Shown one piece after another: positions 1,031 to 48,657 of a stretch of 64,000 nt of DNA. A program made the position numbers and the translations under genes. The stretch lies in the NCBI GenBank assembly GCA_964016885.1, contig OZ024740.1:5084001-5148000 (forward strand), given 5' to 3'. How positions within the stretch are numbered: position 1 is the first letter of the stretch; each line of letters opens with the position of its first letter. The notes under the pieces are model-generated. The model made no database searches. It saw only the letters and a program-made list of their open reading frames with translations, and had not been told where the DNA came from. Source of the DNA: Eledone cirrhosa (Eukaryota).

Positions 1031-1032
1031 AA

Positions 1033-6747: not shown

Positions 6748-9700
6748 TTACAAATGACTTATTATTATTATATCAAATAATAATAATAATAATTCATTTG
6801 TAAGCAAAAGTCTCATTCTGCTATATTTAATAGATGACTCTAGTTATCCCTTTGTTCTGGTGATGACAGAGAAATAACTTGTTTCTCTGTAACTGCTGTC
6901 ATTCTTTAGTTCTAGTGATGACAGAGAAATAAATTGTTTCTCTCTGTCACCACTGTCATTCTTTAGTTCTAGTGATGACAGAGAAATAAATTGTTTCTCT
7001 CGGTTACCGCTGTCATTCTTTAGTTCTAGTGATGACAGAGAAATAACTTGTTTCTCTGTCACTGTTGTCATTCTTTAGTTCTAGTGATGACAGAGAAATA
7101 ACTTGTTTCTCTGTAACTGCTGTCATTCTTTAGTTCTAGTGATGACAGAGAAATAAATTGTTTCTCTCTGTCACTGCTGTCATTCTTTAGTTCTAGTGAT
7201 GACAGAGAAATAAATTGTTTCTCTCGGTCACCGCTGTCATTCTTTAGTTCTAGTGATGACAGAGAAATAACTTGTTTCTCTGTCACTGTTGTCATTCTTT
7301 AGTTCTAGTGATGACAGAGAAATAACTTGTTTCTCTCTGTCACTGCTGTCATTCTTTAGTTCTAGTGATGACAGAGAAATAACTTGTTTCTCTCTGTCAC
7401 TGCTGTCATTCTTTAGTTCTAGTGATGACAGAGAAATAACTTGTTTCTCTGTCACTGTTGTCATTCTTTAGTTCTAGTGATGACAGAGAAATAACTTGTT
7501 TCTCTCTGTCACTGCTGTCATTCTTTAGTTCTAGTGATGACAGAGAAATAACTTGTTTCTCTCTGTCACTGCTGTCATTCTTTAGTTCTACTGATGACAG
7601 AGAAATAACTTGTTTCTCTCTGTCACTGCTGTCATTCTTTAGTTCTAGTGATGACAGAAAAATAACTTGTTTCTCTCTGTCACTGCTGTCATTCTTTAGT
7701 TCTAGTGATGACAGAGAAATAACTTGTTTCTCTCTGTCACTGCTGTCATTCTTTAGTTCTACTGATGACAGACAAATAACTTGTTTCTCTCTGTCACTGT
7801 TGTCATTCTTTAGTTCTACTGATGACAGAGAAATAACTTTTTTCTCTCTGTCACTGCTGTCATTCTTTAGTTCTAGTGATGACAGAGAAATAACTTGTTT
7901 CTCTCTGTCACTGCTGTCATTTTTTAGTTCTACTGATGACAGAGAAATAACTTGTTTCTCTCTGTCACTGCTGTCATTCTTTCGTTCTACTGATGACAGA
8001 GAAATAACTTGTTTCTCTCTGTCACTGCTGTCATTCTTTAGTTCTAGTGATGACAGAGAAATAACTTGTTTCTCTCTGTCACTGCTGTCATTCTTTAGTT
8101 CTAGTGATGACAGAGAAATAACTTGTTTCTCTCTGTCACTGCTGTCATACTTTAGTTCTAGTGATGACAGAGAAATAACTTGTTTCTCTCTGTCACACTT
8201 TAGTTCTACTGATGACAGAGAAATAACTTGTTTCTCTCTGTCACTGCTGTCATTCTTTAGTTCTAGTGATGACAGAGAAATAACTTGTTTCTCTCTGTCA
8301 CTGCTGTCATTCTTTAGTATCTAGTGATGACAGAGAAATAACTTGTTTCTCTCTGTCACTGCTGTCATTCTTTAGTTCTACTGATGACAGAGAAATAACT
8401 TGTTTCTCTCTGTCACTGCTGTCATTCTTTAGTTCTGCTGATGACAGAGAAATAACTTGTTTCTCTCTGTCACTGCTGTCATTCTTTAGTTCTAGTGATG
8501 ACAGAGAAATAACTTGTTTCTCTCTGTCACTGCTGTCATTCTTTAGTTCTAGTGATGACAGAGAAATAACTTGTTTCTCTCTGTCACACTTTAGTTCTAC
8601 TGATGACAGAGAAATAACTTGTTTCTCTCTCTTACTGCTGTAATTCTTTAGTTCTAGTGATGACAGAGAAATAACTTGTTTCTCTCTGTCACACTTTAGT
8701 TCTACTGATGACAGAGAAATAGCTTGTTTCTCTCTGTCACTGCTGTTATTCTTTAGTTCTAGTGATGACAGAGAAATAACTTGTTTCTCTCTGTCACTGC
8801 TGTCATTCTTTAGTTCTAGTGATGACAGAGAAATAACTTGTTTCTCTCTGTCACTGCTGTCATTCTTTAGTTCTAGTGATGACAGAGAAATAACTTGTTT
8901 CTCTCTGTCACTGCTGTCATTCTTTAGTTCTAATGATGACAGAGAAATAACTTGTTTCTCTCTGTCACTGCTGTCATTCTTTAGTTCTACTGATGACAGA
9001 GAAATAAATTGTTTCTCTCTGTCACTGCTGTCATTCTTTAGTTCTAGTGATGACAGAGAAATAACTTGTTTCTCTCTGTCACTGCTGTCATTCTTTAGTT
9101 CTACTGATGACAGAGAAATAACTTGTTTCTCTCTGTCACTGCTGTCATTCTTTAGTTCTAGTGATGACAGAGAAATAACTTGTTTCTCTCTGTCACTGCT
9201 GTCATTCTTTAGTTCTACTGATGACAGAGAAATAACTTGTTTCTCTCTGTCATTCTTTAGTTCTCCTGATGACAGAGAAATAACTTGTTTCTCTCTGTCA
9301 TTATTTAGTTCTACTGATGACAGAGAAATAACTTGTTTCTCTCTGTCACTGTTGTCATTCTTTAGTTCTAGTGATGACAGAGAAATAACTTGTTTCTCTC
9401 TGTCACTGCTGTCATTCTTTAGTTCTACTGATCCCAGAGAAATAACTTGTTTCTCTCTGTCACTGCTGTCATTCTTTAGTTCTAGTGATGACAGAGAAAT
9501 AACTTGTTTCTCTCTGTCACTGCTGTCATTCTTTAGTTCTAGTGATGACAGAGAAATAACTTGTTTCTCTCTGTCACTGCTGTCATTCTTTAGTTCTAGT
9601 GATGACAGAGAAATAACTTGTTTCTCACTGTCACTGCTGTCATTCTTTAGTTCTAGTGATGACAGAGAAATAACTTGTTTCTCTCTGTCACTGCTGTCAT

Positions 9701-12700
9701 TCTTTAGTTCTAGTGATGACAGAGAAATAACTTGTTTCTCTCTGTTACTGCTGTCATCCTTTAGTTCTAGTGATGACAGAGAAATAACTTGTTTCTCTCT
9801 GTCACTGCTGTCATTCTTTAGTTCTAGTGATGACAGAGAAATAACTTGTTTCTCACTGTCACTGCTGTGATTCTGTAGTTCTAGTGATGACAGAGAAATA
9901 ACTTGTTTCTCTCTGTCACTGCTGTCATTCTTTAGTTCTAGTGATGACAGAGAAATAACTTGTTTCTCTCTGTCACTGCTGTCATTCTTTAGTTCTAGTG
10001 ATGACAGAGAAATAACTTGTTTCTCTCTGTCACTGCTGTCATTCTTTAGTTCTAGTGATGACAGAGAAATAACTTGTTTCTCTCTGTCACTGCTGTCATT
10101 CTTTAGTTCTAGTGATGACAGAGAAATAACTTATTTCTCTCTGTTACTGCTGTCATCCTTTAGTTCTAGTGATGACAGAGAAATAACTTGTTTCTCTCTG
10201 TCACTGCTGTCATTCTTTAGTTCTACTGATGACAGAGAAATAACTTGTTTCTCTCTGTCACTGCTGTCATTCTTTAGTTCTAGTGATGACAGAAAAATAA
10301 CTTGTTTCTCTCTGTCACTGCTGTCATTCTTTAGTTCTAGTGATGACAGAGAAATAACTTGTTTCTCTCTGTCACTGCTGTCATTCTTTAGTTCTACTGA
10401 TGACAGACAAATAACTTGTTTCTCTCTGTCACTGTTGTCATTCTTTAGTTCTACTGATGACAGAGAAATAACTTTTTTCTCTCTGTCACTGCTGTCATTC
10501 TTTAGTTCTAGTGATGACAGAGAAATAACTTGTTTCTCTCTGTCACTGCTGTCATTTTTTAGTTCTACTGATGACAGAGAAATAACTTGTTTCTCTCTGT
10601 CACTGCTGTCATTCTTTCGTTCTACTGATGACAGAGAAATAACTTGTTTCTCTCTGTCACTGCTGTCATTCTTTAGTTCTAGTGATGACAGAGAAATAAC
10701 TTGTTTCTCTCTGTCACTGCTGTCATTCTTTAGTTCTAGTGATGACAGAGAAATAACTTGTTTCTCTCTGTCACTGCTGTCATACTTTAGTTCTAGTGAT
10801 GACAGAGAAATAACTTGTTTCTCTCTGTCACACTTTAGTTCTACTGATGACAGAGAAATAACTTGTTTCTCTCTGTCACTGCTGTCATTCTTTAGTTCTA
10901 GTGATGACAGAGAAATAACTTGTTTCTCTCTGTCACTGCTGTCATTCTTTAGTATCTAGTGATGACAGAGAAATAACTTGTTTCTCTCTGTCACTGCTGT
11001 CATTCTTTAGTTCTACTGATGACAGAGAAATAACTTGTTTCTCTCTGTCACTGCTGTCATTCTTTAGTTCTGCTGATGACAGAGAAATAACTTGTTTCTC
11101 TCTGTCACTGCTGTCATTCTTTAGTTCTAGTGATGACAGAGAAATAACTTGTTTCTCTCTGTCACTGCTGTCATTCTTTAGTTCTAGTGATGACAGAGAA
11201 ATAACTTGTTTCTCTCTGTCACACTTTAGTTCTACTGATGACAGAGAAATAACTTGTTTCTCTCTCTTACTGCTGTAATTCTTTAGTTCTAGTGATGACA
11301 GAGAAATAACTTGTTTCTCTCTGTCACACTTTAGTTCTACTGATGACAGAGAAATAGCTTGTTTCTCTCTGTCACTGCTGTTATTCTTTAGTTCTAGTGA
11401 TGACAGAGAAATAACTTGTTTCTCTCTGTCACTGCTGTCATCCTTTAGTTCTAGTGATGACAGAGAAATAACTTGTTTCTCTCTGTCACTGCTGTCATTC
11501 TTTAGTTCTAGTGATGACAGAGAAATAACTTGTTTCTCTCTGTCACTGCTGTCATTCTTTAGTTCTAATGATGACAGAGAAATAACTTGTTTCTCTCTGT
11601 CACTGCTGTCATTCTTTAGTTCTACTGATGACAGAGAAATAAATTGTTTCTCTCTGTCACTGCTGTCATTCTTTAGTTCTAGTGATGACAGAGAAATAAC
11701 TTGTTTCTCTCTGTCACTGCTGTCATTCTTTAGTTCTACTGATGACAGAGAAATAACTTGTTTCTCTCTGTCACTGCTGTCATTCTTTAGTTCTAGTGAT
11801 GACAGAGAAATAACTTGTTTCTCTCTGTCACTGCTGTCATTCTTTAGTTCTACTGATGACAGAGAAATAACTTGTTTCTCTCTGTCATTCTTTAGTTCTC
11901 CTGATGACAGAGAAATAACTTGTTTCTCTCTGTCATTATTTAGTTCTACTGATGACAGAGAAATAACTTGTTTCTCTCTGTCACTGTTGTCATTCTTTAG
12001 TTCTAGTGATGACAGAGAAATAACTTGTTTCTCTCTGTCACTGCTGTCATTCTTTAGTTCTACTGATCCCAGAGAAATAACTTGTTTCTCTCTGTCACTG
12101 CTGTCATTCTTTAGTTCTAGTGATGACAGAGAAATAACTTGTTTCTCTCTGTCACTGCTGTCATTCTTTAGTTCTAGTGATGACAGAGAAATAACTTGTT
12201 TCTCTCTGTCACTGCTGTCATTCTTTAGTTCTAGTGATGACAGAGAAATAACTTGTTTCTCACTGTCACTGCTGTCATTCTTTAGTTCTAGTGATGACAG
12301 AGAAATAACTTGTTTCTCTCTGTCACTGCTGTCATTCTTTAGTTCTAGTGATGACAGAGAAATAACTTGTTTCTCTCTGTTACTGCTGTCATCCTTTAGT
12401 TCTAGTGATGACAGAGAAATAACTTGTTTCTCTCTGTCACTGCTGTCATTCTTTAGTTCTAGTGATGACAGAGAAATAACTTGTTTCTCACTGTCACTGC
12501 TGTGATTCTGTAGTTCTAGTGATGACAGAGAAATAACTTGTTTCTCTCTGTCACTGCTGTCATTCTTTAGTTCTAGTGATGACAGAGAAATAACTTGTTT
12601 CTCTCTGTCACTGCTGTCATTCTTTAGTTCTAGTGATGACAGAGAAATAACTTGTTTCTCTCTGTCACTGCTGTCATTCTTTAGTTCTAGTGATGACAGA

Positions 12701-15700
12701 GAAATAACTTGTTTCTCTCTGTCACTGCTGTCATTCTTTAGTTCTAGTGATGACAGAGAAATAACTTATTTCTCTCTGTTACTGCTGTCATCCTTTAGTT
12801 CTAGTGATGACAGAGAAATAACTTGTTTCTCTCTGTCACTGCTGTCATTCTTTAGTTCTAGTGATGACAGAGAAATAACTTGTTTCTCTCTGTTACTGCT
12901 GTCATTATTTAGTTCTAGTGATGACAGGGAAATAACTTGTATCTCTCTGTCACTGCTGTCATTCTTTAGTTCTAGTGATGACAGATAAATAACTTGTTTC
13001 TCTCTGTCACTGCTGTCATTCTTTAGTTCTAGTGATGACAGAGAAATAACTTGTTTCTCTCTGTCACTGCTGTCATCCTTTAGTTCTAGTGATGACAGAG
13101 AAATAACTTGTTTCTCTGTCACTGCTGTCATTCTTTAGTTCTAGTGATGACAGAGAAATAAGTTGTTTCTCTCTGTCACTGCTGTCATTCTTTACTTCTG
13201 CTGATGACAGATAAATAACTTGTTTCTCTCTGTCACTGCTGTCATTCTTTAGTTCTAGTGATGACAGAGAAATAACTTGTTTCTCTCTGTCACTGCTGTC
13301 ATTCTGTAGTTCTGCTGATGACAGAGAAATAACTTGTTTCTCTCTGTCATTCTTTAGTTCTAGTGATGACAGAGAAATAACTTGTTTCTCTCTGTCACTG
13401 CTGTCATTCTTTAGTTCTTCTGATGACAGATAAATAACTTGTTTCTCTCTGTCACTGCTGTCATTCTTTAGTTCTAGTGATGACAGAGAAATAAGTTGTT
13501 TCTCTCTGTCACTGCTGTCATTCTTTATTTCTAGTGATGACAGATAAATAACTTGTTTCTCTCTGTCACTGCTGTCATCCTTTAGTTCTAGTGATGACAG
13601 AGAAATAACTTGTTTCTCTCTGTCACTGCTGTCATTCTTTAGTTCTAGTGATGACAGAGAAATAACTTGTTTCTCTCTGTCACTGCTGTCATTCTTTAGT
13701 TCTAGTGATGACAGAGAAATAACTTGTTTCTCTCTGTCACTGCTGTCATTCTTTAGTTCTGCTGATGACAGAGAAATAACTTGTTTCTCTCTGTTATTCT
13801 TTAGTTCTAGTGATGACAGAGAAATAACTTGTTTCTCTCTGTCACTACTGTCATTCTTTAGTTCTTCTGATGACAGAGAAATAACTTGTTTCTCTCTGTC
13901 ATTCTTTAGTTCTAGTGATGACAGAGAAATAACTTGTTTCTCACTGTCACTGCTGTCATTCTTTAGTTCTAGTGATGACAGAGAAATAACATGTTTCTCT
14001 CTGTCACTGCTGTCATTCTTTAGGTCTAGTGATGACAGAGAAATAACTTGTTTCTCTCTGTTACTGCTGTCATCCTTTAGTTCTAGTGATGACAGAGAAA
14101 TAACTTGTTTCTCTCTGTCACTGCTGTCATTCTTTAGTTCTAGTGATGACAGAGAAATAACTTGTTTCTCACTGTCACTGCTGTGATTCTTTAGTTCTAG
14201 TGATGACACAGAAATAACTTGTTTCTCTCTGTCACTGCTGTCATTCTTTAGTTCTAGTGATGACAGAGAAATAACTTGTTTCTCTCTGTCACTGCTGTCA
14301 TTCTTTAGTTCTAGTGATGACAGAGAAATAACTTGTTTCTCTCTGTCACTGCTGTCATTCTTTAGTTCTAGTGATGACAGAGAAATAACTTGTTTCTCTC
14401 TGTCACTGCTGTCATTCTTTAGTTCTAGTGATGACAGAGAAATAACTTATTTCTCTCTGTTACTTCTGTCATCCTTTAGTTCTAGTGATGACAGAGAAAT
14501 AACTTGTTTCTCTCTGTCACTGCTGTCATTCTTTAGTTCTAGTGATGACAGAGAAATAACTTGTTTCTCTCTGTTACTGCTGTCATTATTTAGTTCTAGT
14601 GATGACAGGGAAATAACTTGTATCTCTCTGTCACTGCTGTCATTCTTTACTTCTAGTGATGACAGATAAATAACTTGTTTCTCTCTGTCACTGCTGTCAT
14701 TCTTTAGTTCTAGTGATGACAGAGAAATAACTTGTTTCTCTCTGTCACTGCTGTCATCCTTTAGTTCTAGTGATGACAGAGAAATAACTTGTTTCTCTGT
14801 CACTGCTGTCATTCTTTAGTTCTAGTGATGACAGAGAAATAAGTTGTTTCTCTCTGTCACTGCTGTCATTCTTTACTTCTGCTGATGACAGAGAAATAAC
14901 TTGTTTCTCTCTGTCACTGCTGTCATTCTTTAGTTCTAGTGATGACAGAGAAATAACTTGTTTCTCTCTGTCACTGCTGTCATTCTTTAGTTCTGCTGAT
15001 GACAGAGAAATAACTTGTTTCTCTCTGTCATTCTTTAGTTCTAGTGATGACAGAGAAATAACTTGTTTCTCTCTGTCACTGCTGTCATTCTTTAGTTCTT
15101 CTGATGACAGAGAAATAACTTGTTTCTCTCTGTCATTCTTTAGTTCTACTGATGACAGATAAATAACTTGTTTCTCTCTGTCACTGCTGTCATTCTTTAG
15201 TTCTAGTGATGACAGAGAAATAAGTTGTTTCTCTCTGTCACTGCTGTCATTCTTTATTTCTAGTGATGACAGATAAATAACTTGTTTCTCTCTGTCACTG
15301 CTGTCATCCTTTAGTTCTAGTGATGACAGAGAAATAACTTGTTTCTCTCTGTCACTGCTGTCATTCTTTAGTTCTAGTGATGACAGAGAAATAACTTGTT
15401 TCTCTCTGTCACTGCTGTCATTCTTTAGTTCTAGTGATGACAGAGAAATAACTTGTTTCTCTCTGTCACTGCTGTCATTCTTTAGTTCTGCTGATGACAG
15501 AGAAATAACTTGTTTCTCTCTGTCATTCTTTAGTTCTAGTGATGACAGAGAAATAACTTGTTTCTCTCTGTCACTACTGTCATTCTTTAGTTCTTCTGAT
15601 GACAGAGAAATAACTTGTTTCTCTCTGTCATTCTTTAGTTCTACTGATGACAGATAAATAACTTGTTTCTCTCTGTCACTGCTGTCATTCTTTAGTTCTA

Positions 15701-18700
15701 GTGATGACAGAGAAATAACTTGTTTCTCTCTGTCACTGCTGTCATTCTTTAGTTCTAGTGATGACAGAGAAATAACTTGTTTCTCACTGTCACTGCTGTC
15801 ATTCTTTAGTTCTAGTGATGACAGAGAAATAACTTGTTTCTCTCTGTCACTGCTGTCATTCTTTAGTTCTAGTGATGACAGAGAAATAACTTGTTTCTCT
15901 CTGTTACTGCTGTCATCCTTTAGTTCTAGTGATGACAGAGAAATAACTTGTTTCTCTCTGTCACTGCTGTCATTCTTTAGTTCTAGTGATGACAGAGAAA
16001 TAACTTGTTTCTCACTGTCACTGCTGTGATTCTTTAGTTCTAGTGATGACAGAGAAATAACTTGTTTCTCTCTGTCACTGCTGTCATTCTTTAGTTCTAG
16101 TGATGACAGAGAAATAACTTGTTTCTCTCTGTCACTGCTGTCATTCTTTAGTTCTAGTGATGACAGAGAAATAACTTGTTTCTCTCTGTCACTGCTGTCA
16201 TTCTTTAGTTCTAGTGATGACAGTGAAATAACTTGTTTCTCTGTCACTGCTGTCATTCTTTAGTTCTAGTGATGACAGAGAAATAACTTATTTCTCTCTG
16301 TTACTGCTGTCATCCTTTAGTTTTAGTGATGACAGAGAAATAACTTGTTTCTCTCTGTCACTGCTGTCATTCTTTAGTTCTAGTGATGACAGAGAAATAA
16401 CTTGTTTCTCTCTGTTACTGCTGTCATTATTTAGTTCTAGTGATGACAGGGAAATAACTTGTATCTCTCTGTCACTGCTGTCATTCTTTAGTTCTAGTGA
16501 TGACAGATAAATAACTTGTTTCTCTCTGTCACTGCTGTCATTCTTTAGTTCTAGTGATGACAGAGAAATAACTTGTTTCTCTCTGTCACTGCTGTCATCC
16601 TTTAGTTCTAGTGATGACAGAGAAATAACTTGTTTCTCTGTCACTGCTGTCATTCTTTAGTTCTAGTGATGACAGAGAAATAAGTTGTTTCTCTCTGTCA
16701 CTGCTGTCATTCTTTACTTCTGCTGATGACAGAGAAATAACTTGTTTCTCTCTGTCACTGCTGTCATTCTTTAGTTCTAGTGATGACAGAGAAATAACTT
16801 GTTTCTCTCTGTCACTGCTGTCATTCTTTAGTTCTGCTGATGACAGAGAAATAACTTGTTTCTCTCTGTCATTCTTTAGTTCTAGTGATGACAGAGAAAT
16901 AACTTGTTTCTCTCTGTCACTGCTGTCATTCTTTAGTTCTTCTGATGACAGAGAAATAACTTGTTTCTCTCTGTCATTCTTTAGTTCTACTGATGACAGA
17001 TAAATAACTTGTTTCTCTCTGTCACTGCTGTCATTCTTTAGTTCTAGTGATGACAGAGAAATAAATTGTTTCTCTCTGTCACTGCTGTCATTCTTTATTT
17101 CTAGTGATGACAGATAAATAACTTGTTTCTCTCTGTCACTGCTGTCATCCTTTAGTTCTAGTGATGACAGAGAAATAACTTGTTTCTCTCTGTCACTGCT
17201 GTCATTCTTTAGTTCTAGTGATGACAGAGAAATAACTTGTTTCTCTCTGTCACTGCTGTCATTCTTTAGTTCTAGTGATGACAGAGAAATAACTTGTTTC
17301 TCTCTGTCACTGCTGTCATTCTTTAGTTCTGCTGATGACAGAGAAATAACTTGTTTCTCTCTGTCATTCTTTAGTTCTAGTGATGACAGAGAAATAACTT
17401 GTTTCTCTCTGTCACTGCTGTCATTCTTTAGTTCTTCTGATGACAGAGAAATAACTTGTTTCTCTCTGTCATTCTTTAGTTCTACTGATGACAGATAAAT
17501 AACTTGTTTCTCTCTGTCACTGCTGTCATTCTTTAGTTCTAGTGATGACAGAGAAATAAGTTGTTTCTCTCTGTCACTGCTGTCATTCTTTATTTCTAGT
17601 GATGACAGATAAATAACTTGTTTCTCTCTGTCACTGCTGTCATCCTTTAGTTCTAGTGATGACAGAGAAATAAGTTGTTTCTCTCTGTCACTGCTGTCAT
17701 TCTTTAGTTCTAGTGATGACAGAGAAATAAGTTGTTTCTCTCTGTCACTGCTGTCATTCTTTAGTTCTAGTGATGACAGAGAAATAACTTGTTTCTCTCT
17801 GTCACTGCTGTCATTCTTTAGTTCTTCTGATGACAGAGAAATAACTTGTTTCTCTCTGTCATTCTTTAGTTCTACTGATGACAGATAAATAACTTGTTTC
17901 TCTCTGTCACTGCTGTCATTCTTTAGTTCTAGTGATGACAGAGAAATAACTTGTTTCTCTCTGTCACTGCTGTCATTCTTTAGTTCTAGTGATGACAGAG
18001 AAATAACTTGTTTCTCTCTGTCACTGCTGTCATTCTTTAGTTCTTCTGATGACAGAGAAATAACTTGTTTCTCTCTGTCATTCTTTAGTTCTACTGATGA
18101 CAGATAAATAACTTGTTTCTCTCTGTCACTGCTGTCATTCTTTAGTTCTAGTGATGACAGAGAAATAAGTTGTTTCTCTCTGTCACTGCTGTCATTCTTT
18201 AGTTCTAGTGATGACAGAGAAATAACTTGTTTCTCTCTGTCACTGCTGTCATTCTTTAGTTCTAGTGATGACAGACAAATAACTTGTTTCTCTCTGTCAC
18301 TGCTGTCATTCTTTAGTTCTAGTGATGACAGAGAAATAACGTGTTTCTCTCTGTCACTGCTGTCATTCTTTAGTTCTAGTGATGACAGAGAAATAACTTG
18401 TTTCTCTCTGTCACTGCTGTCATTCTTTAGTTCTTCTGATGACAGAGAAATAACTTGTTTCTCTCTGTCATTCTTTAGTTCTACTGATGACAGAGAAATA
18501 ACTTGTTTCTCTCTGTCACTGCTGTCATTCTTTAGTTCTACTGATGACAGAGAAAAAACTTGTTTCTCTCTGTCATTCTTTAGTTCTACTGATGACAGAG
18601 AAATAACTTGTTTCTCTCTGTCATTATTTAGTTCTACTGATGACAGAGAAATAACCTGTTTCTCTCTGTCACTGTTGTCATTCTTTAGTTCTAGTGATGA

Positions 18701-33700: not shown

Positions 33701-36700
33701 GTTCTAGTGATGACAGAGAAATAACTTGTTTCTCTGTCACTGCTGTCATTCTTTAGTTCTAGTGATGACAGAGAAATAACTTATTTCTCTCTGTTACTGC
33801 TGTCATCCTTTAGTTCTAGTGATGACAGAGAAATAACTTGTTTCTCTCTGTCACTGCTGTCATTCTTTAGTTCTACTGATGACAGATAAATAACTTGTTT
33901 CTCTCTGTCACTGCTGTCATTCTTTAGTTCTAGTGATGACAGAGAAATAAGTTGTTTCTCTCTGTCACTGCTGTCATTCTTTATTTCTAGTGATGACAGA
34001 TAAATAACTTGTTTCTCTCTGTCACTGCTGTCATCCTTTAGTTCTAGTGATGACAGAGAAATAAGTTGTTTCTCTCTGTCACTGCTGTCATTCTTTAGTT
34101 CTAGTGATGACAGAGAAATAACTTGTTTCTCTCTGTCACTGCTGTCATTCTTTAGTTCTTCTGATGACAGAGAAATAACTTGTTTCTCTCTGTCATTCTT
34201 TAGTTCTACTGATGACAGATAAATAACTTGTTTCTCTCTGTCACTGCTGTCATTCTTTAGTTCTAGTGATGACAGAGAAATAACTTGTTTCTCTCTGTCA
34301 CTGCTGTCATTCTTTAGTTCTAGTGATGACAGAGAAATAACTTGTTTCTCTCTGTCACTGCTGTCATTCTTTAGTTCTTCTGATGACAGAGAAATAACTT
34401 GTTTCTCTCTGTCATTCTTTAGTTCTACTGATGACAGATAAATAACTTGTTTCTCTCTGTCACTGCTGTCATTCTTTAGTTCTAGTGATGACAGAGAAAT
34501 AAGTTGTTTCTCTCTGTCACTGCTGTCATTCTTTAGTTCTAGTGATGACAGAGAAATAACTTGTTTCTCTCTGTCACTGCTGTCATTCTTTAGTTCTAGT
34601 GATGACAGACAAATAACTTGTTTCTCTCTGTCACTGCTGTCATTCTTTAGTTCTAGTGATGACAGAGAAATAACTTGTTTCTCTCTGTCACTGCTGTCAT
34701 TCTTTAGTTCTAGTGATGACAGAGAAATAACTTGTTTCTCTCTGTCACTGCTGTCATTCTTTAGTTCTTCTGATGACAGAGAAATAACTTGTTTCTCTCT
34801 GTCATTCTTTAGTTCTACTGATGACAGAGAAATAACTTGTTTCTCTCTGTCACTGCTGTCATTCTTTAGTTCTACTGATGACAGAGAAAAAACTTGTTTC
34901 TCTCTGTCATTCTTTAGTTCTACTGATGACAGAGAAATAACTTGTTTCTCTCTGTCATTATTTAGTTCTACTGATGACAGAGAAATAACCTGTTTCTCTC
35001 TGTCACTGTTGTCATTCTTTAGTTCTAGTGATGACAGAGAAATAACTTGTTTCTCTCTGTCACTGCTATCATTCTTTAGTTCTACTGATCACAGAGAAAT
35101 AACTTGTTTCTCTCTGTCACTGCTGTCATTCTTTAGTTCTAGTGATGACAGAGAAATAACTTGTTTCTCTCTGTCACTGCTGTCATTATTTAGTTCTAGT
35201 GATGACAGAGAAATAACTTGTTTCTCTCTGTCACTGCTGTCATTCTTTAGTTCTAGTGATGACAGAGAAATAACTTGTTTCTCACTGTCACTGCTGTCAT
35301 TCTTTAGTTCTAGTGATGACAGAGAAATAACTTGTTTCTCTCTGTCACTGCTGTCATTCTTTAGTTCTAGTGATGACAGAGAAATAACTTGTTTCTCTCT
35401 GTCACTGCTGTCATTCTTTAGTTCTAGTGATGACAGAGAAATAACTTGTTTCTCTCTGTTACTGCTGTCATCCTTTAGTTCTAGTGATGACAGAGAAATA
35501 ACTTGTTTCTCTCTGTCACTGCTGTCATTCTTTAGTTCTAGTGATGACAGATAAATAACTTGTTTCTCTCTGTCACTGCTGTCATTCTTTAGTTCTAGTG
35601 ATGACAGAGAAATAACTTGTTTCTCTCTGTCACTGCTGTCATCCTTTAGTTCTAGTGATGACAGAGAAATAACTTGTTTCTCTGTCACTGCTGTCATTCT
35701 TTAGTTCTAGTGATGACAGAGGAATAACTTGTTTCTCTCTGTTACTGCTGTCATTCTTTAGTTCTAGTGATGACAGAGAAATAACTTGTTTCTCTGTCAC
35801 TGTTGTCATTCTTTAGTTCTAGTGATGACAGAGAAATAAGTTGTTTCTCTCGGTCACTGCTGTCATTCTTTACTTCTGCTGATGACAGAGAAATAACTTG
35901 TTTCTCTCTGTCACTGCTGTCATTCTTTAGTTCTAGTGATGACAGAGAAATAACTTGTTTCTCTCTGTCACTGCTGTCATTCTTTAGTTCTGCTGATGAC
36001 AGAGAAATAACTTGTTTCTCTCTGTCATTCTTTAGTTCTAGTGATGACAGAGAAATAACTTGTTTCTCTCTGTCACTGCTGTCATTCTTTAGTTCTGCTG
36101 ATGACAGAGAAATAACTTGTTTCTCTCTGTCATTCTCTAGTTCTAGTGATGACAGAGAAATAACTTGTTTCTCTCTGTCAATGCTGTCATTCTTTACTTC
36201 TAGTGATGTCAGAGAAATAAGTTGTTTCTCTCTGTCACTGCTGTCATTCTTTAGTTCTAGTGATGACAGAGAAATAACTTGTTTCTCTCTGTCACTGCTG
36301 TCATTCTTTAGTTCTTCTGATGACAGAAAAATAACTTGTTTCTCTCTGTCATTCTTTAGTTCTACTGATGACAGATAAATAACTTGTTTCTCTCTGTCAC
36401 TGCTGTCATTCTTTAATTCTAGTGATGACAGAGAAATAAGTTGTTTCTCTCTGTCACTGCTGTCATTCTTTATTTCTAGTGATGACAGATAAATAACTTG
36501 TTTCTCTCTGTCACTGCTGTCATCCTTTAGTTCTAGTGATGACAGAGAAATAACTTGTTTCTCTCTGTCACTGCTGTCATTCTTTAGTTCTAGTGATGAC
36601 AGAGAAATAAGTTGTTTCTCTCTGTCACTGCTGTCATTCTTTAGTTCTAGTGATGACAGAGAAATAAGTTGTTTCTCTCTGTCACTGTTGTCATTCTTTA

Positions 36701-39700
36701 GTTCTAGTGATGACAGAGAAATAACTTGTTTCTTTCTGTCACTGCTGTCATTCTTTAGTTCTAGTGATGACAGAGAAATAACTTGTTTCTCTCTGTCACT
36801 GCTGTCATTCTTTAGTTCTTCTGATGACAGAGAAATAACTTGTTTCTCTCTGTCATTCTTTAGTTCTACTGATGACAGATAAATAACTTGTTTCTCTCTG
36901 TCACTGCTGTCATTCTTTAGTTCTAGTGATGACAGAGAAATAAGTTGTTTCTCTCTGTCACTGCTGTCATTCTTTAGTTCTAGTGATGACAGAGAAATAA
37001 CTTGTTTCTCTCTGTCACTGCTGTCATTCTTTAGTTCTAGTGATGACAGAGAAATAACTTGTTTCTCTCTGTCACTGCTGTCATACTTTAGTTCTAGTGA
37101 TGACAGAGAAATAACTTGTTTCTCTCTGTCACTGCTGTCATTCCTTAGTTCTAGTGATGACAGAGAAATAACTTGTTTCTCTCTGTCACTGCTGTCATTC
37201 TTTAGTTCTTCTGATGACAGAGAAATAACTTGTTTCTCTCTGTCATTCTTTAGTTCTACTGATGACAGATAAATAACTTGTTTCTCTCTGTCACTGCTGT
37301 CATTCTTTAGTTCTAGTGATGACAGATAAATAACTTGTTTCTCTCTGTTACTGCTGTCATCATTTAGTTCTAGTGATGACAGAGAAATAACTTGTTTCTC
37401 TCTGTCACTGCTGTCATTCTTTAGTTCTAGTGATGACAGAGAAATAACTTGTTTCTCTCTGTCACTGCTGTCATTCTTTAGTTCTAGTGATGACAGAGAA
37501 ATAACTTGTTTCTCTCTGTCACTGTTGTCATTCTTTAGTTCTAGTGATGACAGAGAAATAACTTGTTTCTCTCTGTTACTGCTGTCATCCTTTAGTTCTA
37601 GTGATGACAGAGAAATAACTTGTTTCTCTCTCTCACTGTTGTCATTCTTTAGTTCTACTGATGACAGAGAAATAACATGTTTCTCTCTGTCACTGCTGTC
37701 ATTCTTTAGTTCTAGTGATGACAGATAAATAACTTGTTTCTCTCTGTTACTGCTGTCATCCTTTAGTTCTAGTGATGACAGAGAAATAACTTGCTTCTCT
37801 CTGTCACTGCTGTCATTCTTTAGTTCTAGTGATGACAGAGAAATAACTTGTTTCTCTCTGTCACTGCTGTCATTCTTTAGTTCTGCTGATGACAGAGAAA
37901 TAACTTGTTTCTCTCTGTCACACTTTAGTTCTACTGATGACAGAGAAATAACTTGTTTCTCTGTCACTGCTGTCATTCTTTAGTTCTAGTGATGACAGAG
38001 AAATAACTTGTTTCTCTCTGTCACTGCTGTCATTCTTTAGTTCTAGTGATGACAGAGAAATAACTTGTTTCTCTGTCACTGCTGTCATTCTTTAGTTCTA
38101 GTGATGACAGAGAAATAACTTGTTTCTCACTGTCACTGCTGTCATTCTTTAGTTCTAGTGATGACAGAGAAATAACTTGTTTCTCTCTGTCACTGCTGTC
38201 ATTCTTTAGTTCTAGTGATGACAGAGAAATAACTTGTTTCTCTCTGTTACTGCTGTCATCCTTTAGTTCTAGTGATGACAGAGAAATAACTTGTTTCTCT
38301 CTGTCACTGCTGTCATTCTTTAGTTCTAGTGATGACAGAGAAATAACTTGTTTCTCACTGTCACTGCTGTGATTCTTTAGTTCTAGTGATGACAGAGAAA
38401 TAACTTGTTTCTCTCTGTCACTGCTGTCATTCTTTAGTTCTAGTGATGACAGAGAAATAACTCATTTCTCTCTGTTACTGCTGTCATCCTTTATTTCTAG
38501 TGATGACAGAGAAATAACTTGTTTCTCTCTGTCACTGCTGTCATTCTTTAGTTCTAGTGATGACAGAGAAATAACTTGTTTCTCTCTGTTACTGCTGTCA
38601 TTATTTAGTTCTAGTGATGACAGGGAAATAACTTGTATCTCTCTGTCACTGCTGTCATTCTTTAGTTCTAGTGATGACAGATAAATAACTTGTTTCTCTC
38701 TGTCACTGCTGTCATTCTTTAGTTCTAGTGATGACAGAGAAATAACTTGTTTCTCTCTGTCACTGCTGTCATCCTTTAGTTCTAGTGATGACAGAGAAAT
38801 AACTTGTTTCTCTGTCACTGCTGTCATTCTTTAGTTCTAGTGATGACTGAGAAATAAGTTGTTTCTCTCTGTCACTGCTGTCATTCTTTACTTCTGCTGA
38901 TGACAGAGAAATAACTTGTTTCTCTCTGTCACTGCTGTCATTCTTTAGTTCTAGTGATGACAGAGATATAACTTGTTTCTCTCTGTCACTGCTGTCATTC
39001 TTTAGTTCTGCTGATGACAGAGAAATAACTTGTTTCTCTCTGTCATTCTTTAGTTCTAGTGATGACAGAGAAATAACTTGTTTCTCTCTGTCACTGCTGT
39101 CATTCTTTAGTTCTTCTGATGACAGAGAAATAACTTGTTTCTCTCTGTCATTCTTTAGTTCTACTGATGACAGATAAATAACTTGTTTCTCTCTGTCACT
39201 GCTGTCATTCTTTAGTTCTAGTGATGACAGAGAAATAAGTTGTTTCTCTCTGTCACTGCTGTCATTCTTTATTTCTAGTGATGACAGATAAATAACTTGT
39301 TTCTCTCTGTCACTGCTGTCATCCTTTAGTTCTAGTGATGACAGAGAAATAACTTGTTTCTCTCTGTCACTGCTGTCATTCTTTAGTTCTAGTGATGACA
39401 GAGAAATAACTTGTTTCTCTCTGTCACTGCTGTCATTCTTTAGTTCTAGTGATGACAGAGATATAACTTGTTTCTCTCTGTCACTGCTGTCATTCTTTAG
39501 TTCTGCTGATGACAGAGAAATAACTTGTTTCTCTCTGTCATTCTTTAGTTCTAGTGATGACAGAGAAATAACTTGTTTCTCTCTGTCACTGCTGTCATTC
39601 TTTAGTTCTTCTGATGACAGAGAAATAACTTGTTTCTCTCTGTCATTCTTTAGTTCTACTGATGACAGATAAATAACTTGTTTCTCTCTGTCACTGCTGT

Positions 39701-39714
39701 CATTCTTTAGTTCT

Positions 39715-40840
39715 AAGTTATTTCTCTGTCATCAGTAGAACTAAAGAATGACAGCAGTGACAGAGAGAAACAAGTTATTTCTCTGTCATCAGTAGAACTA
39801 AAGAATGACAGAGAGAAACAAGTTATTTCTCTGTCATCAGAAGAACTAAAGAATGACAGCAGTGACAGAGAGAAACAAGTTATTTCTCTGTCATCACTAG
39901 AACTAAAGAATGACAGCAGTGACAGAGAGAAACAAGTTATTTCTCTGTCATCACTAGAACTAAAGAATGACAGCAGTGACAGAGAGAAACAAGTTATTTG
40001 TCTGTCATCACTAGAACTAAAGAATGACAGCAGTGACAGAGAGAAACAAGTTATTTCTCTGTCATCACTAGAACTAAAGAATGACAGCAGTGACAGAGAG
40101 AAACAACTTATTTCTCTGTCATCACTAGAACTAAAGAATGACAGCAGTGACAGAGAGAAACAAGTTATTTATCTGTCATCAGTAGAACTAAAGAATGACA
40201 GAGAGAAACAAGTTATTTCTCTGTCATCAGAAGAACTAAAGAATGACAGCAGTGACAGAGAGAAACAAGTTATTTCTCTGTCATCACTAGAACTAAAGAA
40301 TGACAGCAGTGACAGAGAGAAACAAGTTATTTCTCTGTCATCACTAGAACTAAAGAATGACAGCAGTGACAGAGAGAAACAAGTTATTTATCTGTCATCA
40401 GTAGAACTAAAGAATGACAGAGAGAAACAAGTTATTTCTCTGTCATCAGAAGAACTAAAGAATGACAGCAGTGACAGAGAGAAACAAGTTATTTCTCTGT
40501 CATCACTAGAACTAAAGAATGACAGCAGTGACAGAGAGAAACAACTTATTTCTCTGTCATCACTAGAACTAAAGAATGACAGCAGTGACAGAGAGAAACA
40601 ACTTATTTCTCTGTCATCACTAGAACTAAAGGATGACAGCAGTGACAGAGAGAAACAAGTTATTTATCTGTCATCACTAGAAATAAAGAATGACAGCAGT
40701 GACAGAGAGAAACAACTTATTTCTCTGTCATCACTAGAACTAAAGGATGACAGCAGTGACAGAGAGAAACAAGTTATTTATCTGTCATCACTAGAAATAA
40801 AGAATGACAGCAGTGACAGAGAGAAACAACTTATTTCTCT
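39715..40840 (-). repeat. Inverted block of satellite monomers (copy 1)
   Basis: Sequence switches to the reverse complement after ttcta at 39711-39715 and returns at tttctct, 40834-40840. Confidence 0.95.
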
Positions 40841-43267
40841 CTGTCACTGCTGTCATTCTTTATTTCTAGTGATGACAGATAAATAACTTGTTTCTCTCTG
40901 TCACTGCTGTCATCCTTTAGTTCTAGTGATGACAGAGAAATAAGTTGTTTCTCTCTGTCACTGCTGTCATTCTTTAGTTCTAGTGATGACAGAGAAATAA
41001 CTTGTTTCTCTCTGTCACTGCTGTCATTCTTTAGTTCTAGTGATGACAGAGAAATAACTTGTTTCTCTCTGTCACTGTTGTCATTCTTTAGTTCTAGTGA
41101 TGACAGAGAAATAACTTGTTTCTCTCTGTTACTGCTGTCATCCTTTAGTTCTAGTGATGACAGAGAAATAACTTGTTTCTCTCTCTCACTGTTGTCATTC
41201 TTTAGTTCTACTGATGACAGAGAAATAACATGTTTCTCTCTGTCACTGCTGTCATTCTTTAGTTCTAGTGATGACAGATAAATAACTTGTTTCTCTCTGT
41301 TACTGCTGTCATCCTTTAGTTCTAGTGATGACAGAGAAATAACTTGCTTCTCTCTGTCACTGCTGTCATTCTTTAGTTCTAGTGATGACAGAGAAATAAC
41401 TTGTTTCTCTCTGTCACTGCTGTCATTCTTTAGTTCTGCTGATGACAGAGAAATAACTTGTTTCTCTCTGTCACACTTTAGTTCTACTGATGACAGAGAA
41501 ATAACTTGTTTCTCTGTCACTGCTGTCATTCTTTAGTTCTAGTGATGACAGAGAAATAACTTGTTTCTCTCTGTCACTGCTGTCATTCTTTAGTTCTAGT
41601 GATGACAGAGAAATAACTTGTTTCTCTGTCACTGCTGTCATTCTTTAGTTCTAGTGATGACAGAGAAATAACTTGTTTCTCACTGTCACTGCTGTCATTC
41701 TTTAGTTCTAGTGATGACAGAGAAATAACTTGTTTCTCTCTGTCACTGCTGTCATTCTTTAGTTCTAGTGATGACAGAGAAATAACTTGTTTCTCTCTGT
41801 TACTGCTGTCATCCTTTAGTTCTAGTGATGACAGAGAAATAACTTGTTTCTCTCTGTCACTGCTGTCATTCTTTAGTTCTAGTGATGACAGAGAAATAAC
41901 TTGTTTCTCACTGTCACTGCTGTGATTCTTTAGTTCTAGTGATGACAGAGAAATAACTTGTTTCTCTCTGTCACTGCTGTCATTCTTTAGTTCTAGTGAT
42001 GACAGAGAAATAACTCATTTCTCTCTGTTACTGCTGTCATCCTTTATTTCTAGTGATGACAGAGAAATAACTTGTTTCTCTCTGTCACTGCTGTCATTCT
42101 TTAGTTCTAGTGATGACAGAGAAATAACTTGTTTCTCTCTGTTACTGCTGTCATTATTTAGTTCTAGTGATGACAGGGAAATAACTTGTATCTCTCTGTC
42201 ACTGCTGTCATTCTTTAGTTCTAGTGATGACAGATAAATAACTTGTTTCTCTCTGTCACTGCTGTCATTCTTTAGTTCTAGTGATGACAGAGAAATAACT
42301 TGTTTCTCTCTGTCACTGCTGTCATCCTTTAGTTCTAGTGATGACAGAGAAATAACTTGTTTCTCTGTCACTGCTGTCATTCTTTAGTTCTAGTGATGAC
42401 TGAGAAATAAGTTGTTTCTCTCTGTCACTGCTGTCATTCTTTACTTCTGCTGATGACAGAGAAATAACTTGTTTCTCTCTGTCACTGCTGTCATTCTTTA
42501 GTTCTAGTGATGACAGAGATATAACTTGTTTCTCTCTGTCACTGCTGTCATTCTTTAGTTCTGCTGATGACAGAGAAATAACTTGTTTCTCTCTGTCATT
42601 CTTTAGTTCTAGTGATGACAGAGAAATAACTTGTTTCTCTCTGTCACTGCTGTCATTCTTTAGTTCTTCTGATGACAGAGAAATAACTTGTTTCTCTCTG
42701 TCATTCTTTAGTTCTACTGATGACAGATAAATAACTTGTTTCTCTCTGTCACTGCTGTCATTCTTTAGTTCTAGTGATGACAGAGAAATAAGTTGTTTCT
42801 CTCTGTCACTGCTGTCATTCTTTATTTCTAGTGATGACAGATAAATAACTTGTTTCTCTCTGTCACTGCTGTCATCCTTTAGTTCTAGTGATGACAGAGA
42901 AATAACTTGTTTCTCTCTGTCACTGCTGTCATTCTTTAGTTCTAGTGATGACAGAGAAATAACTTGTTTCTCTCTGTCACTGCTGTCATTCTTTAGTTCT
43001 AGTGATGACAGAGATATAACTTGTTTCTCTCTGTCACTGCTGTCATTCTTTAGTTCTGCTGATGACAGAGAAATAACTTGTTTCTCTCTGTCATTCTTTA
43101 GTTCTAGTGATGACAGAGAAATAACTTGTTTCTCTCTGTCACTGCTGTCATTCTTTAGTTCTTCTGATGACAGAGAAATAACTTGTTTCTCTCTGTCATT
43201 CTTTAGTTCTACTGATGACAGATAAATAACTTGTTTCTCTCTGTCACTGCTGTCATTCTTTAGTTCT

Positions 43268-44393
43268 AAGTTATTTCTCTGTCATCAGTAGAACTAAAGA
43301 ATGACAGCAGTGACAGAGAGAAACAAGTTATTTCTCTGTCATCAGTAGAACTAAAGAATGACAGAGAGAAACAAGTTATTTCTCTGTCATCAGAAGAACT
43401 AAAGAATGACAGCAGTGACAGAGAGAAACAAGTTATTTCTCTGTCATCACTAGAACTAAAGAATGACAGCAGTGACAGAGAGAAACAAGTTATTTCTCTG
43501 TCATCACTAGAACTAAAGAATGACAGCAGTGACAGAGAGAAACAAGTTATTTGTCTGTCATCACTAGAACTAAAGAATGACAGCAGTGACAGAGAGAAAC
43601 AAGTTATTTCTCTGTCATCACTAGAACTAAAGAATGACAGCAGTGACAGAGAGAAACAACTTATTTCTCTGTCATCACTAGAACTAAAGAATGACAGCAG
43701 TGACAGAGAGAAACAAGTTATTTATCTGTCATCAGTAGAACTAAAGAATGACAGAGAGAAACAAGTTATTTCTCTGTCATCAGAAGAACTAAAGAATGAC
43801 AGCAGTGACAGAGAGAAACAAGTTATTTCTCTGTCATCACTAGAACTAAAGAATGACAGCAGTGACAGAGAGAAACAAGTTATTTCTCTGTCATCACTAG
43901 AACTAAAGAATGACAGCAGTGACAGAGAGAAACAAGTTATTTATCTGTCATCAGTAGAACTAAAGAATGACAGAGAGAAACAAGTTATTTCTCTGTCATC
44001 AGAAGAACTAAAGAATGACAGCAGTGACAGAGAGAAACAAGTTATTTCTCTGTCATCACTAGAACTAAAGAATGACAGCAGTGACAGAGAGAAACAACTT
44101 ATTTCTCTGTCATCACTAGAACTAAAGAATGACAGCAGTGACAGAGAGAAACAACTTATTTCTCTGTCATCACTAGAACTAAAGGATGACAGCAGTGACA
44201 GAGAGAAACAAGTTATTTATCTGTCATCACTAGAAATAAAGAATGACAGCAGTGACAGAGAGAAACAACTTATTTCTCTGTCATCACTAGAACTAAAGGA
44301 TGACAGCAGTGACAGAGAGAAACAAGTTATTTATCTGTCATCACTAGAAATAAAGAATGACAGCAGTGACAGAGAGAAACAACTTATTTCTCT
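43268..44393 (-). repeat. Inverted block of satellite monomers (copy 2, 3553 bp downstream)
   Basis: Same junctions and variant order as 39715-40840. Confidence 0.95.
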
Positions 44394-47300
44394 CTGTCAC
44401 TGCTGTCATTCTTTATTTCTAGTGATGACAGATAAATAACTTGTTTCTCTCTGTCACTGCTGTCATCCTTTAGTTCTAGTGATGACAGAGAAATAAGTTG
44501 TTTCTCTCTGTCACTGCTGTCATTCTTTAGTTCTAGTGATGACAGAGAAATAAGTTGTTTCTCTCTGTCACTGCTGTCATTCTTTAGTTCTAGTGATGAC
44601 AGAGAAATAACTTGTTTCTCTCTGTCACTGCTGTCATTCTTTAGTTCTTCTGATGACAGAGAAATAACTTGTTTCTCTCTGTCATTCTTTAGTTCTACTG
44701 ATGACAGATAAATAACTTGTTTCTCTCTGTCACTGCTGTCATTCTTTAGTTCTAGTGATGACAGAGAAATAACTTGTTTCTCTCTGTCACTGCTGTCATT
44801 CTTTAGTTCTAGTGATGACAGAGAAATAACTTGTTTCTCTCTGTCACTGCTGTCATTCTTTAGTTCTTCTGATGACAGAGAAATAACTTGTTTCTCTCTG
44901 TCATTCTTTAGTTCTACTGATGACAGATAAATAACTTGTTTCTCTCTGTCACTGCTGTCATTCTTTAGTTCTAGTGATGACAGAGAAATAAGTTGTTTCT
45001 CTCTGTCACTGCTGTCATTCTTTAGTTCTAGTGATGACAGAGAAATAACTTGTTTCTCTCTGTCACTGCTGTCATTCTTTAGTTCTAGTGATGACAGACA
45101 AATAACTTGTTTCTCTCTGTCACTGCTGTCATTCTTTAGTTCTAGTGATGACAGAGAAATAACTTGTTTCTCTCTGTCACTGCTGTCATTCTTTAGTTCT
45201 AGTGATGACAGAGAAATAACTTGTTTCTCTCTGTCACTGCTGTCATTCTTTAGTTCTTCTGATGACAGAGAAATAACTTGTTTCTCTCTGTCATTCTTTA
45301 GTTCTACTGATGACAGAGAAATAACTTGTTTCTCTCTGTCACTGCTGTCATTCTTTAGTTCTACTGATGACAGAGAAATAACTTGTTTCTCTCTGTCACT
45401 GCTATCATTCTTTAGTTCTACTGATCACAGAGAAATAACTTGTTTCTCTCTGTCACTGCTGTCATTCTTTAGTTCTAGTGATGACAGAGAAATAACTTGT
45501 TTCTCTCTGTCACTGCTGTCATTATTTAGTTCTAGTGATGACAGAGAAATAACTTGTTTCTCTCTGTCACTGCTGTCATTCTTTAGTTCTAGTGATGACA
45601 GAGAAATAACTTGTTTCTCACTGTCACTGCTGTCATTCTTTAGTTCTAGTGATGACAGAGAAATAACTTGTTTCTCTCTGTCACTGCTGTCATTCTTTAG
45701 TTCTAGTGATGACAGAGAAATAACTTGTTTCTCTCTGTCACTGCTGTCATTCTTTAGTTCTAGTGATGACAGAGAAATAACTTGTTTCTCTCTGTTACTG
45801 CTGTCATCCTTTAGTTCTAGTGATGACAGAGAAATAACTTGTTTCTCTCTGTCACTGCTGTCATTCTTTAGTTCTAGTGATGACAGAGAAATAACTTGTT
45901 TCTCTCTGTTACTGCTGTCATTCTTTAGTTCTAGTGATGACAGAGAAATAACTTGTATCTCTCTGTCACTGCTGTCATTCTTTTGTTCTAGTGATGACAG
46001 ATAAATAACTTGTTTCTCTCTGTCACTGCTGTCATTCTTTAGTTCTAGTGATGACAGAGAAATAACTTGTTTCTCTCTGTCACTGCTGTCATCCTTTAGT
46101 TCTAGTGATGACAGAGAAATAACTTGTTTCTCTGTCACTGCTGTCATTCTTTAGTTCTAGTGATGACAGAGAAATAACTTGTTTCTCTCTGTTACTGCTG
46201 TCATTCTTTAGTTCTAGTGATGACAGAGAAATAACTTGTTTCTCTGTCACTGTTGTCATTCTTTAGTTCTAGTGATGACAGAGAAATAAGTTGTTTCTCT
46301 CTGTCACTGCTGTCATTCTTTACTTCTGCTGATGACAGAGAAATAACTTGTTTCTCTCTGTCACTGCTGTCATTCTTTAGTTCTAGTGATGACAGAGAAA
46401 TAACTTGTTTCTCTCTGTCACTGCTGTCATTCTTTAGTTCTGCTGATGACAGAGAAATAACTTGTTTCTCTCTGTCATTCTTTAGTTCTAGTGATGACAG
46501 AGAAATAACTTGTTTCTCTCTGTCACTGCTGTCATTCTTTAGTTCTGCTGATGACAGAGAAATAACTTGTTTCTCTCTGTCATTCTTTAGTTCTAGTGAT
46601 GACAGAGAAATAACTTGTTTCTCTCTGTCACTGCTGTCATTCTTTACTTCTAGTGATGTCAGAGAAATAAGTTGTTTCTCTCTGTCACTGCTGTCATTCT
46701 ATAGTTCTAGTGATGACAGAGAAATAACTTGTTTCTCTCTGTCACTGCTGTCATTCTTTAGTTCTTCTGATGACAGAGAAATAACTTGTTTCTCTCTGTC
46801 ATTCTTTAGTTCTACTGATGACAGATAAATAACTTGTTTCTCTCTGTCACTGCTGTCATTCTTTAGTTCTAGTGATGACAGAGAAATAAGTTGTTTCTCT
46901 CTGTCACTGCTGTCATTCTTTATTTCTAGTGATGACAGATAAATAACTTGTTTCTCTCTGTCACTGCTGTCATCCTTTAGTTCTAGTGATGACAGAGAAA
47001 TAACTTGTTTCTCTCTGTCACTGCTGTCATTCTTTAGTTCTAGTGATGACAGAGAAATAAGTTGTTTCTCTCTGTCACTGCTGTCATTCTTTAGTTCTAG
47101 TGATGACAGAGAAATAACTTGTTTCCCTCTGTCACTGCTGTCATTCTTTAGTTCTAGTGATGACAGAGAAATAACTTGTTTCTCTCTGTCATTCTTTAGT
47201 TCTACTGATGACAGATAAATAACTTGTTTCTCTCTGTCACTGCTGTCATTCTTTAGTTCTAGTGATGACAGAGAAATAAGTTGTTTCTCTCTGTCACTGC

Positions 47301-48298
47301 TGTCATTCTTTAGTTCTAGTGATGACAGAGAAATAACTTGTTTCTCTCTGTCACTGCTGTCATTCTTTAGTTCTAGTGATGACAGAGAAATAACTTGTTT
47401 CTCTCTGTCACTGTTGTCATTCTTTAGTTCTACTGATGACAGAGAAATAACTTGTTTCTCTCTGTCACTGCTGTCATTCTTTAGTTCTACTGATGACAGA
47501 GAAATATCTTGTTTCTCTCTGTCACTGCTGTCATTCTTTAGTTCTAGTGATGACAGAGAAATAACTTGTTTCTCTCTGTTACTGCTGTCATTCTTTAGTT
47601 CTAGTGATGACAGAGAAATATGTTGTTTCTCTGTCACTGTTGTCATTCTTTAGTTCTAGTGATGACAGAGAAATAACTTGTTTCTCTCTGTTACTGCTGT
47701 CATTCTTTAGTTCTACTGATGACAGAGAAATAACTTGTTTGTCTCTGTTACTGCTGTCATTCTTTAGTTCTAGTGATGACAGAGAAATATGTTGTTTCTC
47801 TGTCACTGTTGTCATTCTTTAGTTCTAGTGATGACAGAGAAATAACTTGTTTCTCTCTGTCACTGTTGTCATTCTTTAGTTCTAGTGATAACAGAGAAAT
47901 AACTTGTTTCTCTGTCACTGTTGTCATTCTTTAGTTCTAGTGATGACAGAGAAATAACTTGTTTCTCTCTGTCACTGTTGTCATTCTTTAGTTCTAGTGA
48001 TGACAGAGAAATAACTTGTTTCTCTCTGTCACTGCTAGAACGACCGGATGGTGAAAGTCATTAAAATATATGGCGTAATGAGGCTGTTTTCTTGCAAATC
48101 AATCGAATGTTATTATCATATGCTATAAACTCACAAATATATTTGCATATCTGTTATTTTAGAGTGAAAAACCAAATTCTATCTCAGAATTTTTTCTCAT
48201 AAACAATCTGGATGTCAGGAGAATTTTTGTCCGTCCACTTAATAATGTTGATACCAAGATAAAGAGCTGGTAAAAAACTGGACTTTGTTGAATAACTC

Positions 48299-48570: not shown

Positions 48571-48657
48571 TCTTGGGTCTTTAAGAAAGACTATCACCCT
48601 GGATAACTTGAGGTTATATAGAAATGATGGCTCGACACTTTCATACAATATGAATGG

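Follow-up and report, generated by a model that had tools for sequence, protein, structure and literature searches.

A 41-kb satellite of Eledone cirrhosa at the head-to-head junction of likely non-autonomous Penelope-like retroelement copies

A 41-kb tandem array in the genome of Eledone cirrhosa sits at the head-to-head junction of what are probably non-autonomous Penelope-like retroelement copies, and it was probably expanded in place by neutral turnover. We put the probability of this reading at roughly 0.72. The array lies in a stretch of 64,000 nucleotides, hereafter the window (assembly GCA_964016885.1, contig OZ024740.1, positions 5,084,001 to 5,148,000, forward strand), and all coordinates below count from its first letter. 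What can be read directly is that the flanking sequence belongs to a multicopy, 5'-truncated family whose members often have an inverted copy at their 5' side only. The features on which the argument rests are as follows.

6284..6626, no strand: degenerate (CAC)n microsatellite, adjoining the outer left end of the insertion
6650..6746, minus: fragment of a very high-copy short repeat, which we take to be SINE-like; it interrupts the family arm at an ATT-rich site that is interrupted in many copies
6768..6881, minus: left arm, an inverted, 5'-truncated copy of the 3' part of a dispersed repeat of about 350 bp
6837..6843, plus: left microhomology actctag, not in the family consensus
6843..6897, plus: first, diverged monomer, holding the fold-back junction, where the inverted arm gives way to the sense-strand inner repeat, its loop shortened
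6850..48036, plus: satellite array, 57-bp unit, about 738 copies
48018..48182, plus: right arm, the 3' end portion of the repeat in sense orientation, optional tail included
48031..48038, plus: right microhomology actgctag, read from the sequence at the junction of array and right arm

The 57-bp array amounts to 737.9 copies. Among 734 parsed units, 599 are 57 bp long, 98 are 48 bp, 35 are 55 bp, and 2 are 58 bp; the commonest unit accounts for 194 of the 734, and mean substitution divergence is 2.2%, flat from end to end. Each monomer runs from the inverted arm into the sense-strand inner repeat, with most of the loop deleted, and on into the sense arm, a combination absent from the family consensus. 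The array is an element-derived satellite: it is long and tandem, and its monomer has its homologue in a dispersed element. A coding role was rejected: the reading frames stay open because the unit is 19 codons long, and stops recur. One monomer variant, G18C (117 of the 599 57-bp units), creates a heptamer resembling a hammerhead core. This is likely to be chance, and no stem II is possible there because only 4 bases lie between the heptamer and GAAA.

The two flanks correspond to one and the same stretch of the family, read in opposite directions, and differ from the family consensus at 20 of 105 aligned bases on the left and 28 of 164 on the right. The original prediction had taken these flanks to be unique. 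They are not: a search of 3.0 Gb in 1796 contigs returned 410 candidates for the right flank at about 80% identity, 422 exact matches for a 16-mer of the family arm, and 1117 candidates for the upstream part of the repeat unit. The unit of the family is linear, measures about 350 bp, and contains an inner inverted repeat that is imperfect. Two exact patterns recovered 27 and 9 other short palindromes with differing apexes, a few of the 27 belonging to a related family. A second palindrome-forming family (L057, L061, L064, and L066) has about 55 arm bases in common with this one and a different interior. In one family copy (L062, near 1550-1750), a short tandem triplication of about 47 bp lies inside one arm, possibly an array at an early stage.

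Family architecture was scored in 61 loci that had not been chosen as palindromes; five known inverted pairs were excluded and two direct pairs included. A head-to-head inverted copy lies on the 5' side in 33 of the 61 and on the 3' side in none, an upstream direct (head-to-tail) partial copy is found in 20, and 28 have no inverted copy at all. A single pattern for the tail-to-tail arrangement had no match genome-wide. The 5' ends are staggered. The 3' ends of the main copies fall into two groups, 15 at unit positions 296-307 and 20 at 335-348, with none between (a spacing of about 45 bp, position 348 being the edge of the unit as defined). Microsatellites adjoin the 3' end in 18/61 loci and the 5' end in 11/61, against 35 of 487 background windows, although an ATT run within the unit may have raised the 3' count. 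Two matches within one locus share rare alleles at a mean of 0.81, compared with 0.19 for random pairs (37 loci, inverted and direct pairs).

These traits have been described for Penelope-like elements. Such elements are reported to form partial tandems and to carry a 5'-truncated copy in inverted orientation, with a tail of 30-40 bp and a bias toward microsatellites (PMC8557442); their inverted pseudo-LTRs, with palindromes at the junction, have been read as self-priming (PMC3846280), and two RT start sites account for the tail (PMC11167929). As far as these sources go, the family shares with Penelope/Poseidon, Neptune, and Naiad/Chlamys its 5' truncation, its partial head-to-tail tandems, which form pseudo-LTRs, and its head-to-head inverted 5' copy (PMC3846280, PMC8557442, PMC11167929). 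The family also has, like Penelope-like elements, palindromes where the inverted copies meet, a 3' tail that is optional, and the microsatellite bias, the tail being about 45 bp here and 30-40 bp as reported. Non-autonomous head-to-tail derivatives of Penelope-like elements have been described, and Naiads are reported in Octopus (both in the available text of PMC8557442).

Unlike the Penelope-like elements of those sources, the family was found with no ORF, no partner, and no canonical hammerhead. An autonomous partner encoding RT and GIY-YIG and sharing the terminal repeat was sought in one Penelope-type family and was not found there, the unit being present in only 1 of 30 loci. Two ORFs (L142 and L143), presumably Penelope-type by their motifs, adjoin the unit. 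Their adjacency was not accepted as proof of partnership, given this count and the (TA)n that separates them from the unit; Pfam returned a sub-threshold GIY-YIG match in only 1 of 5 pieces. In several loci of the tested family, the same arrangement with an inverted 5' copy is seen. A young Penelope-type family (L144-L173) is very abundant, at 14,058 candidates, with frequent inverted 5' copies and many 713-aa open frames at 91-94% protein identity. As for the hammerhead, a search of 10 family loci against Rfam to E 5 gave 36 matches, all below gathering scores, mostly simple repeats and no ribozyme among them, and the unit consensus contains no core motif. The available text of PMC8557442 describes the hammerhead as typical of the Penelope-like pseudo-LTR and as absent in Naiad/Chlamys.

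The array might also have been born in place in a DNA element. This could be a fold-back element or MITE whose inverted ends are long and whose inner deletions vary, or one of the Helentron/DINE-1 type; we regard this parentage as improbable. Helentrons and DINE-1 elements have subterminal inverted repeats, a 3' stem-loop, TT insertion, and a Rep/Hel partner, and inversions confined to the 5' side would not be expected of that class. Many copies of the family do resemble palindromes with long terminal inverted repeats and variable middles, and neither an RT partner nor a hammerhead was found. It is also well known that MITEs and Helitrons give rise to satellites (PMC6947457, PMC3879986, PMC7492417, each in its accessible part). 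Against this, fixed terminal inverted repeats, which most copies of a MITE or fold-back element would carry, are not the rule in the 61 loci, of which 28 lack an inverted copy and 20 have head-to-tail partial tandems; the 5' ends are staggered, the 3' ends take two positions, and the left and right outer ends differ in the window. No target-site duplication is evident by eye at the window copy's outer ends.

Whatever the parent, the satellite is confined to one locus of the genome assembly. Two monomer motifs have 423+26 and 459+20 matches genome-wide, in each case exactly the count of the window, and a DNA search with two monomers found only the window locus among the best 150 of 249 matches. 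Neither motif has any other match in the 3.0 Gb. The first monomer runs seamlessly into the left arm and carries the array's private loop, and the last runs straight into the right arm. Amplification in place from the apex of an inverted repeat, as originally proposed, is supported, the motif counts being equal to those of the window and the monomer spanning this copy's own junction. The further suggestion that birthplace and ancestral sequence are both preserved holds for the birthplace, which is readable, but not for the flank as an intact ancestor. Of the first 17 bases of the first monomer, 5 are not those of the monomer consensus. Since the family state agrees with the monomer consensus at 3 of these and with the flank at 2, both have diverged from a common ancestor.

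That divergent first monomer could instead mean that the array was born at another family copy and moved in by gene conversion or circle reintegration, or that two independent insertions flank it by chance. The arms differ as well: the SINE-like insert is present in the left arm and absent from the right, where two alleles are those of a minor subfamily, so the arms may derive from different templates. The lack of any other match for the monomer motifs, together with the continuity of the first and last monomers with their arms, makes a transferred array very improbable. The SINE-like repeat occurs at the same ATT-rich site in other loci (L003, L009, L010, L014, L114, L115, L132, and L135), often in just one arm of a palindrome, and may mark a composite subfamily or template jumps.

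Contigs of sequenced samples were also compared. Those of one sample (X1, X3, and X4) are identical to 48007-48290 and contain the monomer, whose summed depth in them is very high; as this may be the source sample, and as summed depth is not copy number, they support only the presence of the array in real reads. The contigs of X2, X5, and X16 do not cover the monomer-specific part, and such gaps prove nothing. No unexpanded allele or orthologue was seen in the material compared.

Under the Penelope-like reading, reverse transcription would have produced the inverted arm either by folding back at the inner inverted repeat or by starting again on the one template. Short homologies on opposite arms would then have bounded the first duplication, whether it came about by slippage, by a template switch, or by unequal crossover. 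The left microhomology is private to this copy, as the family consensus lacks it, and it was either what made this copy's first duplication possible or a product of that event. The 57-bp junction segment would have duplicated once and then grown by neutral tandem-repeat turnover, with unequal exchange and template switching giving rise to nested duplications of several kb and to an inversion. Meanwhile, the separated arms would have decayed neutrally, and the G.U excess between them would lie in the tail of what ordinary C>T and A>G decay produces.

This last point bears on the part of the original prediction by which the array marks the apex of a structured plus-strand RNA. Its pairing blocks, 7-nt loop, and both microhomologies are all present in the sequence, and the join of 6790-6897 to 48038-48115 does fold, at -62.8 kcal/mol (z -7.9) on the plus strand and -43.7 kcal/mol (z -5.1) on the minus strand. 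The excess of G.U pairs over A.C mismatches is correct as counted, at 11:2 in the core interval (binomial p=0.022), but that figure passes over 9 transversion mismatches in the same interval. Taken along the entire overlap of the arms, a consensus-guided count gives 12 G.U-type to 3 A.C-type with 13 transversions (p=0.035), and a pairwise alignment gives 12:4 with 12 transversions (p=0.077).

Sister palindromes of the same family serve as controls. They exclude duplicates and the related family (L057, L061, L064, and L066); in the consensus-guided count, no arm pair could be obtained for 4 of 45 control loci, and the pairwise count lost 1 of 34 for want of transitions. Pooled, they are symmetric, at 163:159 by pairwise count (33 loci) and 172:178 by consensus-guided count (41 loci). 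No family-wide strand bias by element sense is seen, the 36 controls that could be oriented giving 145:161. Nor is strand-biased mutation at the locus seen in the array's own variants, which show no skew (12:17, p=0.85). We did not use the raw mutation spectrum against the consensus, which seemed skewed, because it is confounded by polymorphic consensus sites. The original prediction had itself named a multicopy MITE with symmetric mismatches as the finding that would tell against it. The family is indeed multicopy and its mismatches symmetric, the element being retrotransposon-like rather than a MITE.

The window copy nevertheless sits in the extreme tail of G.U skew, and residual doubt persists for that reason. 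None of 37 and none of 30 controls are as skewed by the consensus-guided count, and the plus strand folds better than the minus by 16-20 kcal/mol, a gap of 20 kcal/mol being reached by only 2 of 41 controls. By pairwise count, 4 of 33 controls are equally skewed (10:1, 1:9, 11:3, and 9:2), and all 10 control palindromes that were folded score better than the window (z -12.5 to -25.7). Arm-to-arm mismatch is 0.27, the highest of 42 palindromes (controls 0.06-0.24, a range biased low because they were partly chosen by exact motifs), and the arms lie 17% and 19% from the consensus against a family mean of 10%. The 12 G.U pairs arise from 8 C>T changes (4 at CpG) and 4 A>G changes relative to the consensus, which excludes ADAR editing as their origin, 8 of the 12 being C>T. 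Two of the bases that make G.U pairs, 6845 and 6859, are carried by 3 and 13 of the 599 57-bp units, the remainder keeping the family state; because so few units carry them, these changes likely postdate the founding of the array. Of the four changes common to both arms, two fall at CpG sites, a third is a family polymorphism, and the last is an allele found in 9 of 123 copies. At gathering threshold, Rfam finds no family at the hairpin or array locus in a search of the whole window.

A co-opted plus-strand hairpin RNA (pri-miRNA-like, an siRNA source, or an ADAR substrate), in which selection kept G.U over A.C and the apex was amplified later, thus has the core skew and the strand difference in its favour, and is scarcely credible given the multicopy flanks, the symmetric and more strongly folding sister palindromes, the 9-13 transversion mismatches, and arms that the insert now holds 41 kb apart. 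We read the G.U skew as a tail event singled out after the fact, and the hairpin as likely a by-product of element insertion rather than a functional RNA. The locus is not evidence for a new functional RNA. More generally, G.U-rich folds in repeat-rich genomes need to be judged against sister palindromes, not shuffles.

The hairpin may have had a role of another kind in the array's later history, for which three further features are needed.

37392..44553, plus: exact 3.6-kb higher-order duplication, 37392-41000 being repeated at an offset of 3553 and carrying the inverted block twice
39736..40826, minus: inverted block 1, whose right junction pivots on the monomer hairpin (7-nt loop 40827-40833)
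43289..44379, minus: inverted block 2, a copy of block 1 (pivot loop 44380-44386)

Exact duplications inside the array measure 3609, 3031, and about 1300-1400 bases; they show recent turnover, or in part assembly effects. The array is not head-to-tail throughout, as it contains the two inverted blocks of about 1.1 kb, both of which fall within the duplication at offset 3553. The right junction of each block forms a palindrome around the 7-nt loop of the monomer itself, which suggests that the monomer hairpin can serve as a template-switch pivot at the DNA level.

An inversion that pivots on this same loop also suggests, tentatively, a broader idea: that Penelope-like fold-back junctions act as satellite seeds. 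Each insertion would bring a private hairpin that promotes template switching and lets a single copy start, and keep rearranging, a single-locus satellite. If so, the uniqueness of every junction and the survival of both parental arms would let such arrays be traced and dated as records of how satellites are born, and more of them should be expected in genomes rich in Penelope-like elements. Usually, nothing is left of the earliest steps by which a satellite is born. Here, one locus shows the parent family, the junction before amplification, the homogenised monomer, and the later higher-order duplications and inversion, and about 40 unexpanded sister palindromes are available as controls. We therefore regard it as a clean worked example and a test site for models of the first duplication.

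Satellites derived from transposable elements are already known, and the standard model for element-derived minisatellites places the first duplication between repeats of 5-10 bp (PMC6947457, accessible part). The array agrees with that account in having a monomer taken from part of a dispersed element, short flanking homologies, and later expansion and homogenisation. It departs from it, as far as the accessible part of PMC6947457 goes, in that the monomer spans the inversion junction of one insertion and is absent from the element consensus, and in that the array occupies a single locus with both parental arms surviving. Tandem arrays from Penelope-like terminal repeats have been proposed for non-LTR retrozymes (bioRxiv 10.64898/2026.07.22.740005, seen in part), which likewise form local arrays from Penelope-like end sequence. 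Their units carry a type I hammerhead and measure 'up to several hundred bp', whereas a 57-bp hairpin junction is repeated here, with no hammerhead found in the parent unit. Bivalve DTC84 MITEs and oyster Helentrons also combine a tandem array with a dispersed non-autonomous element in a mollusc-type genome (PMC3879986, PMC7492417, accessible parts); their short arrays travel with many copies, whereas one copy among hundreds has a 41-kb array here. In a literature search largely outside subscription journals, we found no account of a satellite born from a head-to-head fold-back junction, nor any description of this octopus-type satellite.

The surroundings of the array are themselves repeat-rich. 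Long open frames at 979-2469 (plus), 57965-59882 (plus), and 61713-63578 (minus) are, we presume, reverse-transcriptase-like and of LINE type. The sole Rfam match in the whole window is a marginal tRNA at 61546-61609 (minus; 29.9 bits against a threshold of 29), probably the tRNA-derived head of a SINE. More short tandem arrays lie near the main one, at 48297-48571, 49185-49375, 56010-56754, and 60052-60613, with units of 30, 22, 26, 47, and 111 bp. Elsewhere in the genome, one copy of the unit has a C2H2 zinc-finger-like open frame (L133, 116-811, plus) about 500 bases away.
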